This document shows positions 6,001 to 12,000 of a stretch of 41,482 bases of DNA, piece after piece (positions within the stretch are counted from its first letter, which is position 1; each line of letters opens with the position of its first letter). The stretch comes from Treponemataceae bacterium (GTDB lineage: Bacteria; Spirochaetota; Spirochaetia; Treponematales; Rectinemataceae), in contig CAXXGJ010000004.1 of assembly GCA_963677895.2 (NCBI GenBank), forward strand, positions 1-41,482. The letters run 5' to 3'. The position numbers were made by a program.

Positions 6001-9000
6001 CGCCACTCCGACGACAGGGGCGTGGCCGTCGTTCTCGACCAACGTCTCGCCACGGCCCGATACGGTCAGCTTTTCATAGAAAGCCTCCCGAAATGCAAGC
6101 TGATCACCGACGGCATCGAGACGATAGCCCTCGAAGTGGAGCGATTCCTGGACGCTTGACGCTTTTTCCTTGCCCCATCTCGACAGCGCTGGTACAATGC
6201 GAGGCGATGCAAGGAAAATCGACATCATGAAAGATACCTCGGCCCCCGTTTTCAAGCTCGAAAACACGATACGCAACTACGCGTGGGGGAGCTATAACGG
6301 ACTTTCGCTCTATGCCGGCGTCGTCACCGACTCAGGGAAACCTTCGGCCGAATGCTGGATGGGCTCGCATCCGGACGCTCCCTCCTCTCTCCTCCTGCCG
6401 GACGGCAAGGCTCTCCCCCTCCCGAAGTACATCCACGACAATCCCATGAAGAGTCTCGGCGAGGAGGTTTTCGCCGAGTTCGACGACCTGCCCTTCCTTT
6501 TCAAGGCGCTCTCCGCCTCGATGCCCCTCTCCATTCAGGTGCACCCCGACAAGGCGCGCGCCGAGATCGGCTTCGAGCGAGAGGAAAAACGCGGTCTCCC
6601 GCGATCGGCGCCCGAGCGCGACTACAAGGACAGGAACCACAAGCCCGAGCTGGCTGTCGCCCTCTCGCCCTTTTCGGCGCTCTGCGGTTTCAGGAGCGCG
6701 GGCGAGGCCGCGGAATTGCTGGGTCCCGAGCTTTGCGGGTATTTCGGTTTTTCGGCCCTCGACGCTGAGGCCTCGCTGCGCGGTCTTCTAGGGAAGGCCC
6801 TCGCCTTACGCGATAAAGAAAGGACACTGCTCGAAATAAAAGCGACTTCCCGCGCGCGGGATCTCGCGAAGAGCGAGGACGAGGGCGCGAGAATCGCCGG
6901 ACAAACCGTCCTCATGTGCTTTCAGCACTATCCCCATGATCCGGGCGCGATTTCCCCGCTTTTCATGAATGTGCTTTTCCTCGAGCCCGGGCAGGGCATC
7001 TATATTCCCGCTGGCGTCATGCATGCGTATCTGAAGGGCACGATTCTCGAGATTATGGCCACCTCCGACAATGTTATCCGGGGCGGGCTCACGCACAAGC
7101 ATGTCGATGTCGACGATCTCCTCGGCACCCTCGATTTTAAGGCCGAACCTACGCTCATCGAGCCCGTTGCCGGTATTTCTGGCGCGCGCGAGGTTTTCTG
7201 GCCTACGCCGGCGCGCGAATTCGCCCTCTCTCGCTTCGACCTTTCCGACCAGAAGCATGCCGAAGTGAAGCCTTCCGGTCCCGAAATTCTTCTTTGCACC
7301 GCGGGCCAGGCCACCATCGACTGCGCTTCCGGCGCCAATCCATCCATCGTCCTCAAGCGAGGCGAATCCGTCTTCGTGGGCGCGGCATGCAAATCCTATT
7401 CCCTGCGCGGTCCCTGCACGGTCTACCGCGCTCGCGTTGGCTCGCTCGCCTCCTCTCATTTAGATCCCGAGGCGTCGCCATGACGATCTGGGTGGATGGG
7501 GACAGCGCCCCGCGCGACATCCGCCCTATCCTCGTGCGCCGCGGCGCAAACATTCCCGTGCGCTTCGTCTCGGCCCGCAAGCTCCCCGATGTGCCCCCCG
7601 CCCTCGCTATTCTCGTGCCCGCGGGACCCGACGCCGCCGATCATTTCATCGAAGAGAATGCCGCGTTGGGCGACCTCGTCGTCACCCGCGACATCCCCTT
7701 CGCCGAGCGCCTCGCGGAAGCGGGCATTGCCGCAATCAACGACCGCGGCGAACTCTACACCAAAGAAAACGTCTCCGAACGCCGTTCCCTCCGCGACGCC
7801 GCCGCCGAGCTACGTTTTTTGGGCATGGCACCGTCTTCGCCAAAGGGGTCACATAGGACGGCCAAGGATACAAAACATTTTTCTGATGGTTTTGATAGAG
7901 TATTAGCAGCACTAAGGAAGCTAAATTAATTATGATTGTAAAGGGTTAGTATTAAAGAACAATATAATTATTGTAAGATTGACACTTCGGGCAGAAAAAG
8001 ATGGAAAAATTGAAACCAGCACGAAACGCCTTCTCTGGCTACACATATCAGCAATCGATCATCTTTCTAATTCTATGCATTATGGACTCAAAACGTCAGA
8101 TAAATCAGCTGGAGATCGAGGCTCCAGAAGATCACAATTTTGAAGACGTAGTACTTCAGGATAGCGAGGGGCAAATATCTTGTCAAATAAAGGATATTAA
8201 TTCGATCACCTTATCAGAGATTAAGGTAAACTCTGACAGTATTCTTATAAATAATAAGCAGCATCGGTTGTCGCAAGGAAGAAACATCCTCTTCATAAAA
8301 AAAATCGATTTTGTACCGAACTGCGAAATCCTCGGATTTAAGGCTTATCATCTTGCCTCCAATGTTTATATTATATCGTTATCTCGCGAAGAAGCACTCT
8401 CTGAGACAGAAAGCTACTATCCTCAGAGTCCGACTAGAGTCAGTCAAATGCAGGCTTTCTTTTCTCGCTGTCTCGACAAGCGTATTTTCTTAATCTCAAG
8501 GATTCAGTTGCCAAAGGTGTCTCTTTTCTGTACGGAACTAGACATGCCATCTTTCGATTTAAACGTAGATTGGATAGAGTTAAGTAATCGATTGATAATT
8601 GAGGGAAAGCCTGGAATTGGAAAAAGTCACCTTGTTGGAAGCATCATGCGGAAAATTCCAGAATCTGTCATCTACCGATTCTGGATTTCCTCTCAAGATA
8701 GTCAGTATCGTGTTAGGTTGCAGTTTTCCGATTTCCTCTGCGATCTATCGATGAAAATATTCAGCGATTATACAATAAGAACTGAAGAAGAGATTATTGA
8801 AAAACTTGCTGCTAACAACAATGTCTTGCTAATAGATGGACTCGATCATGTCCGGAACTATAATCCTGTTGATCTTGAAAAGTACTTAGGATTCTTCGAG
8901 TTAGCTTCTCAAAAGGTTAGGATAATTCTAATTACTCGACCTATAGGAATCCTTCCTGATTGGCCGCGAAAGCAGATGCATAATTGGGATGAACGATTCT

Positions 9001-12000
9001 CCACTGAGTTTTTGGATCGAGTCTTCGATATAAAAGATTATAAAGTATGTCAGGAGATATTTCGGAAAACCAACGGATACCCGCTTCTCTTGAGATACTA
9101 TGCGGAACATTTCAGACAAAAAGGTGTAGTGCCTTCGGAAACTCTCGGTGAAGATATTGACACTTACTACAGCAATTTATTTGATTCGCTTCAATCAAGA
9201 AGCTGTCTTGCAGTCTTCCTTACAAACCGTTCGTATTTCACGTTTTCTGAAATTGAACAGATTCTAGGTTCAGATCTAAATAATATATTAATGGAAATAG
9301 TTGAATCATTGCCGTATTTGTTTGAAATCCGTTTAAACAGGATCTCACTGTTTCACGACAGTTTTGACACTTTCATCAAGAAGCGGGGAGTCGATTTTGA
9401 GAAATGGAGAGATACTGTAAACGATATAGTATTTCAATCGCTCGCCAATCTTGAACGAGAATATTTCTCGAGAATGAAGGCTTTTGATTTAGATAGAATA
9501 AAAGTTTTGGAATTGGCAAAAAAATATGCATCAATTGAGACTTTTGAAAAAACCATCAAGGATAACATTGACTACGAAGGTTTGCAAACTCACTATCAGC
9601 AGATACATGAGATTATTTGCCAAGAGCTTCCAGGTGAATTCGATGTTTATCAGTACTATGATCTTGTTCTTATTCTTAATATGCTAGCGCGCGACCATGT
9701 CTCTACATTACATAATTTCATGTACACTTACTGCCGTAGCCTTATTTTTCATGGCTACACGGTCGAGGATGTGACAAGTACTGGTTACCTATTCTCAATG
9801 TTCTTTTTCATTGAAACAGGCGATAGTAGTTTGATTCGCCATAAAGTTGGTTCTGATCATTATAGTTTGGATAGATTTGAAGAAGATTTCTTAAATGACA
9901 TAGAATCTGAGCAAGAAATGTTCATGTATGATAAAAAAGTTATCAACTTAACAAGACCTTTGCGTGAAACTTTTACAGGAAAAAATGAATATGATATACT
10001 GGAAATACTTCAGTCCCTGTTATTAACAACATACTCAAACGGAACTCAGAGTGATGAATTAATTGCACTCAATGACTTCTTAATCATGTATCTTCAAGGG
10101 GATACAAAAAGAGCAACAACCGCAATTGTTGAAACCTTCTCGAATTTTGGTTTAAGAGAGCAGAATGTTTGTTTTATGCTTGGTAAAGTCGAAGCATCTA
10201 TCAACGAACGTGGCATAAACTTAGAGAAGGATAGATATTGCGGCATAAGTCTCCAAGACTTCATACTTTCTCAGAATTCTAAAGGCTCATTTTATCTGTG
10301 GATTGAAGTTCTTAACTATATACGTTTGCATCTTCATAAGGGAATACCCATCGATATTGGTTCAATTTCCTTATTTTGGGTCTTCTACGCCCAACGAAAG
10401 GACTATACTGCGCTCGGTGTCGTAAATGCACTCTTGGCGTTTGAAAGCCGAATGCTTATTGGGGTTCTAGAGTCAATTCGAGTGATTGCACGATTCCAGA
10501 GTCTTTCTGAGAAGGGAATTCGCCATATTCTTGGAGAGTATCTAGAGAAATCGCCACCACAAATTATTGAGATCGTAGAAAAATATTTCCCCGTGGAAGA
10601 ACTAGAGGTTATATGGTTCCATCTTCCCTCATTGCACGTGAGCAATTTTACATACGAAACCTTCAGGTGTGGGATGAGACAGCTCCTTAGGAATGGACAC
10701 TACGACAAGACACTTGAACTAGATGATTTCGAATCGGTACTTGATTCTAGCTGGGGGGACCATTGTTCAGAAGTTATTGCTGCACTGGGGTACTCTGTAA
10801 AAGTTGCCGAAGGTCACGTTGTACCTAAGCCATTAACTGATCACAAGGTAGAAATCAAGGAAATAATAGCTGAAAATCCTGCAGGAGCACAGCCAGTGAG
10901 TGAGCAGCGCTATCAAGAAGGAACCCTTGACCAAAGTGACATTCCATTTATCATTGAGAGAGTTCTTTCACCCGAGGAGGTCGCAAAGACGGTAGATGGT
11001 TGGTATCATGCACTTTCCGATATATCACTTTATTCTCATTATTCGAAAGAGGAATTGAGAGCGGATCTCCTCAAGGTATTACATGGAGCTATTGGTGCAA
11101 AAATTCGATCTATCGATCATTTTGGTAGCCTTTTTGAGATGATCGGAAATGTCCCAGCTCTCATGATAGCGATTGATCATCCAGTTGATTTTCATCACCT
11201 ATTTTTCAGTTTCCGAGTGTTTCTCCGCATGTCGCTCGGTATTGAAGGGGGTAAGATTTGAAATCTAACAACTGCTTCAACCTGACTCGGCTATGTCACG
11301 CTTCTTGCTGGTCGTCGCTTCGCTCCTCGGCAAGAATCGCGCCATTACGCCTCGCAGGTTAAGCCAATGTTAGGCGGACGCTATACCGCGTTTCGCATAC
11401 AGCAAAAGCACGGACAACTCGTAAAGGGGTAAGCAAATGATTGGAAAATATAAAGTCACAACGCTTTGCGGAAGTACACGCTTTAAAGAACAATTTATTG
11501 AGCAACAGAAGAGATTAACGCTTGACGGTGTCATAGTTGTGTCTGTCGGATTTTTCGGGCACTCCGGCGACACAATAACTGACGAACAAAAGATCATGCT
11601 TGATGATATGCATAAGCGTAAAATCGACATGGCTGACGGTGTTTTCGTTATAAATGTCGGTGGGTATATTGGATCGTCAACAAGAAGCGAGATTGATTAC
11701 GCACTCTGCATGGGCAAATCGGTTGATTATCTTGAGCCGCCTAACCATGATTTAACCTAACTCAGTCTGTAGCTTCGCAGGTTAAATCATAGTTAAGAAA
11801 ATTGGAGGAATAATGCCAACGCAATTAAGGACCCCTCTTTTAATAATGGTCCTGCTTGTTTTTTTAACTTCCTGTACATCAAATCCAAATATTTATAAAA
11901 ATACCGACGCAGAGAATCCTTACCAAAAGGATTTTTTGATGCTTGCCGGTTATATTCGTAAAAATCATGCCGGTTTTTACATGACTCCCTTGCAGACAAT

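Follow-up and report, generated by a model that had tools for sequence, protein, structure and literature searches.

The window, meaning the whole 41,482-nucleotide stretch of DNA analysed here, contains a real integron cassette at positions 7974 to 11369 of the forward strand: a mobile unit of 3396 bp that consists of a promoter-less ORF and its own attC site. It opens a small CALIN of two cassettes (CALINs and SALINs being, respectively, attC clusters and single attC sites without an integron integrase; 10.1101/2022.09.11.507474), and lies at the left edge of a variable, low-G+C island of ~23 kb. As judged from its modelled fold and architecture, the cassette's product, P0001, belongs with the Avs-like STAND NTPases and carries a Cap4-type nuclease at its N terminus; fold, architecture and context, with no defence-family match, make it a probable anti-phage sensor-nuclease. 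We consider it likely that the locus is an integrase-less, two-cassette CALIN, filled in trans at an attI-like site, with an Avs-type immune sensor as its cargo.

The anatomy of the cassette is precise. Its ORF (8001-11261; 1086 amino acids) has a G+C content of 35-44%, against ~60% to the left, and is followed by an attC at 11264-11375 (+ strand) with the R''/L''...L'/R' layout TCTAACA...GCTTCAACC...GGTTAAGCC...GTTAGGC. An nhmmer profile built from 42 attCs of the cassette array on contig C39 matches the window at 11260-11383 (59.7 bits, E 3.5e-16), and the bottom strand folds, with unpaired spacers and bulged bases, at -22.1 kcal/mol (z -3.25), a value that none of 200 shuffled sequences reached. 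In metagenome contigs, attCs of this type (85-96% identity, median 95%) follow 54 different upstream sequences, as counted among the 61 loci that had a complete copy and 40 nt of preceding sequence, and two or more attCs are present in 48 of the 79 metagenome loci read. Homology of the contig to two co-binned contigs, C28 and C13, and to the congener G002 ends at 7977 and starts again at 11356/11368. Junction comparison places a G|TT crossover at both ends, between 7973 and 7974 on the left and between 11369 and 11370 on the right, and the 5' end of the cassette, GATTGACACTTCGGGCAGA, is similar to other cassette starts of the same attC type. In G002 the slot reads ...TATAATTG|TTAGGCGGACGC, with both flanks joined exactly and the cassette precisely missing. 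The survey's reading of the gene as a cassette whose attC belongs to the family of the array is thus borne out by the nhmmer match, the G|TT crossover and the empty slot.

On the left, the slot is bordered by yaiI (7480-7929, + strand; DUF188/YaiI-YqxD), which scores 88.2 bits with Pfam DUF188 and 93.9 bits with the NCBIfam YaiI/YqxD model, under that model's cut-off of 139; its stop codon lies 44 nt before the left crossover. This flank is kept in C28, C13, the congeners G001 and G002, and in G005 and G021. Cassette 2 (11370-11792, + strand; 423 bp) comprises an ORF of 107 amino acids (11437-11760), with no match in Pfam, PADLOC, NCBIfam or PHROGs, and a short attC-like hairpin (11741-11797) that is completely paired, without bulges (-11.4 kcal/mol, z -4.3). 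It is common to C28 and G001, has an internal deletion in G002 and is missing in C13. To its right, an S41 peptidase gene (11813-13180, + strand; Pfam Peptidase_S41, 69.2 bits) is present in C28, C13, G001 and G002 as well as in the window, and so in all five alleles; it starts 20 nt past the last crossover, is without the 5' motif of many cassettes (motif comparison), and has a stop codon that overlaps the start of a FAD-protein gene (ATGA).

The slot therefore exists in five allelic states across strains and congeners: exactly empty in G002, and with other defence cassettes behind the same junction in G001, C28 and C13. This agrees with what the survey had reported of an empty site and other content in congeners, and of different defence-type cargo in the same slot. 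Its description of single cassettes does not hold, as the window has two, C13 three cassette genes at the slot, and C28 two further full attCs before cassette 2. Likewise, the embedding in DNA of 57-62% G+C is true here of the left side only; to the right of cassette 1, G+C is 38-50% up to about 29 kb.

The left junction itself (7962-7977, + strand; three-way and five-way junction comparison) is an AT-rich, attI-like core, ATATAATTATTG|TAAG, to be compared with GTCCAATAAATG|TTAG in the attI of the congener. Identity to the latter is 12-13 of 16 core positions, four of which (TTAG) are supplied by the incoming cassette. The consensus AATWWWTG|TTA recurs at orphan left junctions of the yaiI locus, C6, C30 and an independent CALIN of G001, and also at the three attI sites of G001. 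'attI-like' is hence apt for a short core of ~12-16 nt, and not for any longer homology: beyond the core, no local alignment to true attI regions scores 30 or more. As had been claimed, the genome has two copies of AATAA[AT]TGTTAG, where about 0.3 are expected, and each marks the left junction of a cassette. The motif GTMYAATAWWTGTTAG was derived from the very sites it finds. The core of the C2/C5 locus, GAATTKTTG, fits the consensus more poorly, and the C18 cassette is preceded by an attC remnant instead of a core. The window allele has GTAAG where the other alleles have GTTAG, and its slot may have lost the ability to recombine.

Genome-wide, the array on C39 (46 kb, 33% G+C) has 51 attC-bounded intervals, and outside it nhmmer finds 10 profile matches above 40 bits (47.6-126.7) on eight contigs, the same number of off-array attCs as in the survey. 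Its eight places reduce to five independent loci, because one locus is present as three alleles (C4, the contig of the window, with C13 and C28) and a second as two (C2 and C5). Defence families are concentrated in these off-array cassettes, with PADLOC matches for 13 of 19 ORFs as against 3 of 51 inside the array, a contrast that is biased by the shorter in-array ORFs. Rescoring reproduced the family scores given earlier for the cassette proteins (SduA 480.3 bits, RT_UG17 435.8, SoFic 375.8, RTasPolA 305.7, RTasSLATT 143.9, AriA 98.6, PifA 38.1, TIR 35.5, PDC-M36A 32.1, PD-T7-4 25.6 and NACHT 24.1). As already noted in the survey, no integron integrase is found in the bin (best TIGR02249 match 103 bits, cut-off 265), which counts against the reading to the extent that action in trans has to be inferred; TIGR02249 matches above the cut-off occur in 24 of the 41 genomes searched, including G001 (three) and G002 (one).

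We propose a model in which an integrase encoded elsewhere acts in trans on a cassette circle, whose attC, folded as its bottom strand, would be recombined into an AT-rich site of the double-stranded chromosome. This site, AATWWWTG|TT, resembles the attI core of the genus and would be recognised by the integrase. Congeners, which carry one to three integrases, could be the source, the bin's own having probably been lost to assembly or binning. Slot content turns over between strains, and the cassette gene is presumably expressed by read-through from yaiI.

Other histories for the locus can be envisaged. The cluster could be the stump of a formerly complete integron that kept attI and its first cassettes and had intI deleted; CALINs are thought to arise partly through integrase loss (10.1101/2022.09.11.507474), and the match of the left core to the congener attI would be expected. 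We regard this as quite unlikely, since intI in the genus lies directly upstream of attI, co-oriented and about 190 nt away, whereas here just 44 nt separate an intact yaiI from the crossover; moreover, the attI similarity stops at the core, G005 and G021, from genera without the island, have yaiI ending in the same way and unrelated genes behind it, and at least four independent loci have this core but lack intI. Exchange of the entire slot by homologous recombination in its conserved flanks after DNA uptake, with insertion having happened once or elsewhere, is also unlikely as the origin of the allele differences, while being compatible with filling in trans. The flanks, at 90-96% identity among alleles, are ample for such exchange, and natural transformation is described as driving cassette shuffling in chromosomal integrons (PMC12614218), but the variable segment of every allele starts exactly at G|TT and stops exactly at the attC crossover, the empty allele is base-exact, and the same core occurs at unrelated loci.

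It is very improbable that the arrangement is an artefact of assembly or binning, with the contig joined through a repeated attC or the cassette derived from another organism. The bin does hold three alleles of the yaiI locus and has a contamination of 5.46%, and the contigs of individual sequencing runs break inside the attC (11289-11335), where depth is about 900-1100; it is thus the MAG assembly, together with the equivalent arrangement in G001, that connects cassette 1 to cassette 2. Against an artefact, independent assemblies of public runs from two studies extend over the left junction (6500-11289, 5491 nt; 7704-11289, 3586 nt) without a mismatch and at flank-like depth (run X6: 11 versus 11.7), and G001, an eight-contig assembly, has the same layout with other cargo. 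In run X1, cassette fragments (1115 nt) have 0 mismatches and flank fragments differ by 4-8%.

As to the cargo, residues 1-175 of P0001 (8001-8525, + strand) are modelled (pLDDT 87.4) as a Cap4-type PD-(D/E)xK nuclease domain, a candidate effector, with VIA-align Z scores of 9.5 to Avs3 residues 2-244, 9.3 to HamA, 9.3 to LmuA, and 8.9 and 8.1 to Cap4, against 6.0 for the next unrelated fold. Across 34 homologues, the nuclease residues D29, E40, D49, Q62 and K64 are invariant, and G13, Y14, Y16 and Q17 nearly so. Residues about 190-520 (8568-9560, + strand) form a STAND NTPase module. In its Walker motifs, A (GKPGIGKS, 201-209) and B (LLIDGLD, 276-282), G202, P204, G205, G207, K208, S209, D279, G280 and D282 are invariant in the same 34 homologues. 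The top Foldseek match is Avs3 (E 5.6e-10), then the STAND-TPR protein 6mfv (6.8e-9), with further matches to Apaf-1, Avs4, NLRP3, CED-4 and NOD2. The remainder (residues about 521-1086 plus stop codon; 9561-11261, + strand), a candidate sensor with no family match in Pfam, PADLOC or NCBIfam searches, is helical throughout in the AlphaFold model (mean pLDDT 83.7 for the whole protein). Sequence and profile searches with P0001 gave no match to solved structures.

In the function that we propose, binding of a phage protein to the helical C-terminal region would be followed by oligomerisation of the STAND NTPase with ATP, and the Cap4-type nuclease would cut DNA, such that the infection is aborted. 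There is a small but real probability that the cassette is genuine and P0001 is not immune, being instead a STAND-type regulator or a selfish nuclease-ATPase: it matches no PADLOC defence model (best mad8, 14 bits), its relatives are mostly named 'hypothetical protein' in databases, and STAND clades include non-immune proteins (PMC13581612). The nuclease-STAND-helical architecture, closest to Avs3 and Cap4-type defence nucleases, argues for immunity, as does the company that its homologues keep. In 13 of 16 homologue loci, neighbouring ORFs (30 of 121 in all) match PADLOC at E<=1e-10, compared with 7 of 100 control ORFs (Fisher p 4.7e-4), the controls having been taken from the present genome and not from those of the homologues. 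In a MAG of another spirochaete (Spirochaetia), a homologue with attC-like sites on either side is a cassette of a complete integron (IntI 399.6 bits), adjoining PDC-M34, PD-T4-10 and AbiU genes. Homologues are patchily distributed across phyla, and their G+C is on average 6 points under that of their flanks (48 loci with full flanks).

Integrase-less cassettes, attG insertion sites and defence cassettes are already known. As in CALINs and SALINs, the cassettes here lie outside an integron, in a small cluster (two attCs) with no intI nearby, and the G|TT crossover fits the 5'-GWT-3' consensus of attG, the genomic insertion site, with integrase action in trans as the proposed origin. Loot et al. 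describe attG sites as very unlike attI, with just GWT in common (10.1101/2022.09.11.507474); unlike the sites described there, four independent orphan loci here share the longer, attI-core-like AATWWWTG|TT, and, unlike the CALIN and attG cases of that account, a single slot appears in five allelic states.

BRiCs, the defence cassettes of integrons (10.1101/2024.07.02.601719), similarly package anti-phage genes as cassettes; the same work, which refers to companion work on the superintegron of Vibrio cholerae, interprets a defence cassette homologue with a conserved attC outside the chromosomal integron as an attG insertion. In contrast to the BRiCs described, the defence-type cassettes here lie mostly outside the array and are large (3.4 kb for cassette 1, versus an array median of 825 bp), and their host is an uncultured environmental bacterium in which the defence role is a predicted one. 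Like the antiviral STAND NTPases Avs3 and Avs7, which bear a Cap4 nuclease at the N terminus (PDB 8dgc; PMC13581612), P0001 unites a Cap4-type PD-(D/E)xK nuclease, a STAND NTPase and a large C-terminal region of helices in a single chain. In structure, Avs3 is the best match to full-length P0001 as well as to its N-terminal domain, but the Avs3 chain has 2028 residues to the 1086 of P0001, which matches none of the PADLOC Avs models; PMC13581612 sorts STAND proteins into at least 90 families, and six accessions from the P0001 family are absent from seven of its supplementary files. P0001 is also like the bNACHT proteins, single-gene NLR-like anti-phage proteins (10.1101/2022.07.19.500537), in having a candidate effector N-terminal to the NTPase; unlike them, it falls under the Pfam NACHT cut-off (24.1 versus 26.7 bits), and its relatives variably match NPHP3_N, AAA_22, AAA_16, NB-ARC and NACHT.

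A probable defence cassette at a docking site behind a housekeeping gene, with no integrase beside it and with other defence cassettes or none in related strains, illustrates in nature a route, described only recently, by which defence genes spread.

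The gene at 8001-11261 on the forward strand, which encodes a protein of 1086 aa (P0001), is carried by a real integron cassette that spans 7974-11369 on the same strand. Its stop codon lies 2 nt ahead of a 112-nt attC (11264-11375, forward strand), detected with an nhmmer profile of 42 attCs from C39, the array contig of the same genome bin (39 contigs, 3.51 Mb, 92.8% complete, 5.46% contamination), and scoring 59.7 bits (E 3.5e-16) in a search of the whole genome. The C39 array itself covers 46 kb at 33% G+C and holds 51 attC-bounded intervals, with a median of 825 bp and a maximum of 2648 bp. 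The window's attC has the conserved ends RYYYAAC ... GTTRRRY, with R''/L''/L'/R' boxes forming imperfect inverted repeats (TCTAACA...GCTTCAACC and GGTTAAGCC...GTTAGGC); its bottom strand is predicted to fold at -22.1 kcal/mol (z -3.25, 0 of 200 shuffles as good), the top strand less stably at -19.3 kcal/mol, into a hairpin in which unpaired spacers of 3 nt separate the R from the L stems and bases bulge out of the L stem. G/TT crossovers (the slash marks the point of exchange) bound the cassette as a discrete unit, whose presence or absence is polymorphic to the exact base among the alleles and in the congener G002. The survey's finding that this gene is an integron cassette thus holds, on the strength of an attC of the array's family, the G/TT junctions and the exactly empty slot in G002.

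A second cassette follows at 11370-11792 (forward strand), with a 107-aa ORF (P0002) of no known family and a 57-nt attC-like hairpin at 11741-11797 on the same strand; short, fully paired and atypical, this hairpin is not detected by the C39 attC profile. As the attC at 11264-11375 and the atypical attC-like site at 11741-11797 lie here in one orientation with no integrase nearby, the element is a two-cassette CALIN, a cluster of attCs without an integrase, at the left edge of a variable island. The picture of a lone cassette in high-G+C DNA has therefore to be given up: there are two cassettes, and G+C, which is ~60% up to ~7850 and 35-44% across the large ORF, stays at 38-50% to its right until ~29 kb and returns to ~60% only after ~37.5 kb. 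The S41 peptidase gene next in line (11813-13180, forward strand), whose start lies 20 nt past the last crossover in every allele, was considered as a third cassette and rejected; no attC follows it (the lone signal is a 12.6-bit partial match at the equivalent place in the allele C13), an FAD-protein gene begins at a codon overlapping its stop, and it is without a 5' motif common on cassettes. This motif, [GA]AC[GCA]C with a short hairpin that is rich in G+C and whose loop is often CTTCGG, 5-9 nt past the crossover G, was found in 41 of 64 metagenome loci (L156-L234) and on 19 of 34 C39 cassettes; it is present on the two cassettes of the window (7974-7995 and 11370-11395) and absent at the S41 gene start, and its fold energy is barely below that of shuffles (median -4.9 vs -3.7 kcal/mol). 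A promoter and terminator scan of 7700-12000 returned 12 promoter-like sites against 10.1 expected.

Comparison within the bin and across relatives reveals what else the slot can hold. By BLAST of the window's contig, C4, against the bin, C4 1-7977 corresponds to C28 6339-14318 (95.8% identity) and the left flank to C13 17009-13338, reversed (94.9%), which makes C28 and C13 alleles of the C4 locus. The three part just past ...ATTG/TTAG, the C4 version being G/TAAG, and homology to C4 picks up again from C4 position 11356 for C28 and 11779 for C13; it is this divergence and restart that set the limits of cassette 1 at 7974-11369. The left-flank gene, yaiI, and its surroundings were found in 30 of 41 genomes searched. 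In G002, of the same genus, the left flank runs straight into cassette 2 (...TATAATTG/TTAGGCGGACGC), such that the slot is empty to the base, and in G001, a second congener, the same junction (...AACTATTG/TTAGAA) leads into a 600-aa ATPase and then an attC. This ATPase matches the PADLOC models mad3 (84.3 bits, a generic model that also matched four control ORFs), ATPase-Toprim_I-B (81.7), AriA (79.1) and AriAB (78). The C28 slot holds a DUF4145-like ORF (PD-T7-4, 25.6 bits) and two ORFs without an assigned family, and that of C13 a TIR-like protein (35.5 bits), SduA (480.3 bits) and an HNH-type protein (22.8 bits); in G005 and G021, from other genera, unrelated genes follow yaiI. The slot therefore presents a natural allelic series at one chromosomal position (empty, Avs-like, PARIS-like ATPase, Shedu/TIR/HNH and DUF4145/DUF6414), which shows cassette turnover outside an integron, and the claim that different cassettes occupy one site is borne out by the other defence-type cargo in C28, C13 and G001 and its absence from G002.

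An alternative is that the attC is resident at the locus and only the ORF ahead of it is exchanged. In its favour, the attC in the G001 slot is 95% identical to that of the window, the next best among G000 (the bin itself), G001 and G002 being 77%. When metagenome contigs were scanned for a 28-nt core of the window attC, at least 123 stretches matched, 79 of which were read; in 61 of these the attC is complete, with 40 nt of sequence ahead of it, and 85-96% identical (median 95%), and it follows 54 distinct upstream sequences. At least two attCs occur in 48 of the 79, and neither P0001 nor the window flanks were found in any of them. With the same attC type behind so many different sequences, the resident-attC explanation was rejected; the attC is of a homogeneous type that, as happens in sedentary integrons, is common to a large number of cassettes. 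Two different cassettes carrying this attC type have thus arrived at one slot.

Public sequencing runs provide an independent view. Nine runs, none of them of RNA, contain part of the window and were compared as contigs, with X2-X5, which hold small shares, left out. One 5491-nt contig of run X6 spans 6500-11289 and a 3586-nt contig of run X8 spans 7704-11289, both with 0 mismatches; run contigs end within the attC, at a summed depth of ~900-1100. A contig resembling C28 from 11356 on (18 mismatches) is likewise present in X8, and alleles therefore occur together in one sample. The joint 7973/11370 was not seen in the run contigs, which drop rare variants, and a joint of 8014 to 11259 in X8 (1 contig, depth 2.8, side 23) is too weak for use. 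In X1, a groundwater metagenome from another study (window 8658-10907), cassette fragments of 299, 368 and 448 nt match with 0 mismatches, and flank fragments differ at 14/347, 26/468, 28/351 and 28/657 positions (4-8%), at a depth of only 3-6. This pattern, seen in cassette and flank fragments taken separately, suggests recent transfer of the cassette into a diverged host background.

How the cassettes came to this slot turns on the integrase and on the nature of the target. The bin has no integron integrase, as the survey had it: no TIGR02249 match exceeds the cut-off in G000, the best (103 bits, on C30) leaving model positions 179-235 unmatched, and no recombinase family was found among the 30 window ORFs scanned. 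The window does not hold a complete integron, in which intI adjoins attI and an array. TIGR02249 scores over the cut-off in 24 of 41 genomes (G000 and 40 relatives), with three such matches in G001 and one in G002. The integrase genes of G001 are co-oriented with their arrays, and ~190 nt past each stop comes CTGTCCAATAAATG/TTAG and then the first cassette. G001 has three integrons in all (C5 ~412-551 kb, C1 and C7), one with an array of >130 kb, and in none of the three is intI divergent from the cassettes.

Left junctions without an adjoining integrase ('orphan' junctions) resemble one another around a core of AATWWWTG/TT. They read GTATAATAATTG/TTAG on both C28 and C6, GTATAATATATG/TTAG on C30, CTAATTATTG/TTAG on C13, ATAATTATTG/TAAG on C4, TATTATAATTG/TTAG in G002 and CCCAATTATTG/TTAT at a separate three-attC cluster of G001 (C3 ~518.9-522.3 kb, or L278 10900-14350). 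This last, integrase-less cluster includes a cassette for a NucC-like endonuclease (57.3 bits). The core at the C2/C5 locus, GAATTKTTG, is a poorer fit to the consensus, and the C18 cassette is preceded by an attC remnant. The pattern GTMYAATAWWTGTTAG, which was derived from the same sites that it finds, occurs at six places in three genomes, namely three true attI sites and three orphan junctions, with 0 for the reversed control.

Whether the yaiI slot should be called attI-like or simply a genomic insertion site (attG) can be weighed on these junctions. Between 12 and 13 of 16 core positions are common to the window junction and the three attI sites of G001, but 4 of these are cassette-derived; as the TTAG after the crossover comes from the cassette, evidence for a preferred target is confined to the AT-rich left part. 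No alignment of orphan sites with true attI regions extends past the core, and the gene upstream of the window junction is yaiI, not intI, so that the site is not next to an integrase gene as an attI is. In Loot et al. (10.1101/2022.09.11.507474), in which SALINs are defined, insertion takes place at attG sites with a GWT consensus, and these are described as very different from attI and attC. The G/TT crossover of the window fits attG 5'-GWT-3', and the extended shared core argues against a site otherwise unlike attI. The survey's attI-like designation is thereby left suggestive but unproven, as a possible likeness in the core sequence that stops at its edges.

Turning to the cargo, P0001 belongs to a discrete family, with 324 proteins at E<=1e-3 among 8000 candidates scored and, at the level of cluster representatives (50% identity), 241 matches at E<=1e-3, of which 114 reach E<=1e-30. 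Among the 120 relatives listed, identity is 34-38% over 95-100% of the query, with one exception at 98%, and family members are mostly named 'hypothetical protein'. Searches of PADLOC, NCBIfam, PHROGs and the PDB (by sequence and profile) gave no useful family match for P0001 or P0002, PADLOC v2.0.0 giving no Avs match for P0001, and Pfam at E<=10 offered nothing useful for P0002 or for the N-terminal 201 residues of P0001. A protein atlas lists NACHT/NPHP3_N clusters, one with Cap4_nuclease in 32% of members.

An AlphaFold model of P0001 built from 34 sequences (pLDDT 83.7, pTM 0.72) retrieves by Foldseek, in order, Avs3 (E 5.6e-10), a STAND-TPR protein, Apaf-1, Avs4, NLRP3, CED-4 and NOD2. 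The survey's description of a NACHT-like STAND NTPase is retained as regards the STAND fold, but the match to Pfam NACHT (PF05729), at 24.1 bits, falls under the gathering cut-off of 26.7. Residues 1-195 modelled alone (pLDDT 87.4) align by VIA-align with Avs3 residues 2-244 (Z 9.5, rmsd 4.2, 155 aligned), HamA (9.3), LmuA (9.3) and Cap4 (8.9 and 8.1), the next different fold being at 6.0; Foldseek E-values for this domain are weak, at best 2.5e-3. In the P0001 alignment Walker A/B (GxPGxGKS, DGxD) are invariant, as are D29, E40, D49, Q62 and K64, which we take to be the PD-(D/E)xK/QxK motif of Cap4. The C-terminal ~560 aa are helical and modelled with confidence, and form a candidate sensor region. 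As modelled, P0001 combines two features of Avs proteins, a STAND NTPase fold with Walker A/B and an N-terminal Cap4-type nuclease, and it is plausibly an Avs-like sensor.

The genomic company of its homologues was assessed in species-representative genomes, where a scan gave 436 pattern matches, 110 related stretches and 80 loci that were kept, from Bacteroidota, Bacillota, Spirochaetia, Cloacimonadota, Anaerolineae and two archaeal MAGs. Full flanks were present at 48 of the 80; taking every second one gave 24 loci with 181 ORFs of at least 150 aa within ~6 kb, and the first 121 of these, from 16 loci, were compared with PADLOC. At E<=1e-10, 30 of the 121 have a match, or 25 once five generic matches are removed (mad2, C3a186, MotB-like ZorB, PbeA/Cas3 and C3a214), and at least one such neighbour is found at 13 of the 16 loci, or at 12 when generic models are disregarded. 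Among the families are Gabija, AbiE, AbiU, PifA, SoFic, Avs2, Upx, AriA and restriction-modification. Among 100 control ORFs from seven 20-kb core regions of G000, 7 match, all generically (mad3 four times, mad2, RtcR/PspF and QatD); the difference between neighbours and control has a Fisher p of 4.7e-4, the control coming from a different genome than the neighbours.

The C39 attC profile matches only one of the 80 loci, L073, on the chromosome of a Spirochaetia MAG, at five sites. Two of them (7860-7931 and 11257-11328) bracket the P0001 homologue, the neighbouring cassettes match PDC-M34A/B, PD-T4-10_B and AbiU, and an integrase (399.6 bits, over the cut-off) lies inside the locus, which indicates that complete integrons, too, can carry the family as a cassette. 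This integron (~960-17100) has shorter attCs of ~70 nt, and its early cassettes are nearly all of defence type (PDC-S63, PDC-M34A/B, the P0001 homologue, PD-T4-10_B and AbiU).

Within the bin itself, cargo differs between the array and the outlying sites. At E<=1e-5, PADLOC matches were obtained for three of 51 C39 ORFs of at least 70 aa (one to a TIR effector, at 31.5 bits, and two to mad2) vs 13 of 19 off-array ORFs (Fisher p = 2e-7), in a contrast where in-array ORFs are shorter, PADLOC favours known, larger systems, and 4 of the 13 matches (the C30 reverse-transcriptase genes and the NsnA-like gene of C2) adjoin an attC that does not bound them. On C30 (15694-26760, L043) the strongest off-array attC, at 126.7 bits, precedes a UG9 reverse transcriptase in the form of two ORFs (178 and 125 bits) and an RTasPolA gene (305.7 bits). 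These genes have no attC after them, and C30 also carries the tyrosine recombinase with the best score against the integron-integrase model, of which it lacks positions 179-235.

Beyond the cassettes, a 162-bp direct repeat (13076-13237 and 20055-20216, 96.9% identical), in which the S41 gene ends and the FAD-protein gene begins, flanks a 6.8-kb segment unique to the C4 allele. This segment, with genes for a TctA/B/C transporter, an FAD oxidoreductase and a LysR regulator, interrupts the S41-FAD gene pair; at its edge, 179 bases (13237-13415) match C39 30900-31077, inverted, at 87.7%, inside one of the two largest cassette intervals of the array. A further segment absent from C28 (21214-28922) encodes a TRAP transporter (DctPQM), an MR/MLE enolase-type enzyme, two DUF362 proteins and a GntR regulator, and with both segments the stretch from yaiI to ~31.2 kb makes a strain-variable island of ~23 kb. 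In the conserved high-G+C flank on the other side (752-6159), a 981-aa ORF, to which Pfam, PADLOC and NCBIfam assign no family, directly adjoins an 820-aa DinG-type helicase (PADLOC typeIV_DinG 425 bits, Helicase_C_2 and a 22-residue RadC-like match), its last base being the helicase's first; the two may form a further two-gene system beside the cassette slot.

Cassette insertion at genomic sites is already known from laboratory E. coli with class 1-3 integrases, as are defence cassettes in mobile and Vibrio integrons; 10.1101/2024.07.02.601719 describes defence cassettes in mobile integrons and a defence homologue with a conserved attC outside a Vibrio integron, interpreted as an attG insertion. 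To this the present locus adds a natural allelic series at one chromosomal slot outside the integron, and a candidate extended target core that is directly testable with the congener's integrase. In a limited library we found no account of a defence slot that varies between strains and lies at an orphan core resembling attI.

As for the family, PMC13581612 describes at least 90 defence-associated STAND families, among them Avs7 with a Cap4 nuclease. Six P0001-family accessions were not found in its supplementary text, which as searched may be truncated and list representatives only, and this is no evidence that the family is missing there. The populous, unnamed family of ~1080-aa Cap4-STAND proteins (241 clusters at 50% identity) is a candidate anti-phage sensor.

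Finally, we speculate, with a confidence that falls somewhat short of an even chance, that this lineage keeps several chromosomal 'satellite docking sites', short attI-like cores (AATWWWTG/TT) that have no integrase of their own and would be served in trans by the integrase of a large sedentary integron, and at which large, expressed anti-phage genes would be parked and swapped between strains rather than in the main array; the integron system would then build and refresh defence islands at fixed places outside the integron. Should this reading be true, integrase-less cassette clusters would be working parts of the integron system, and not debris.
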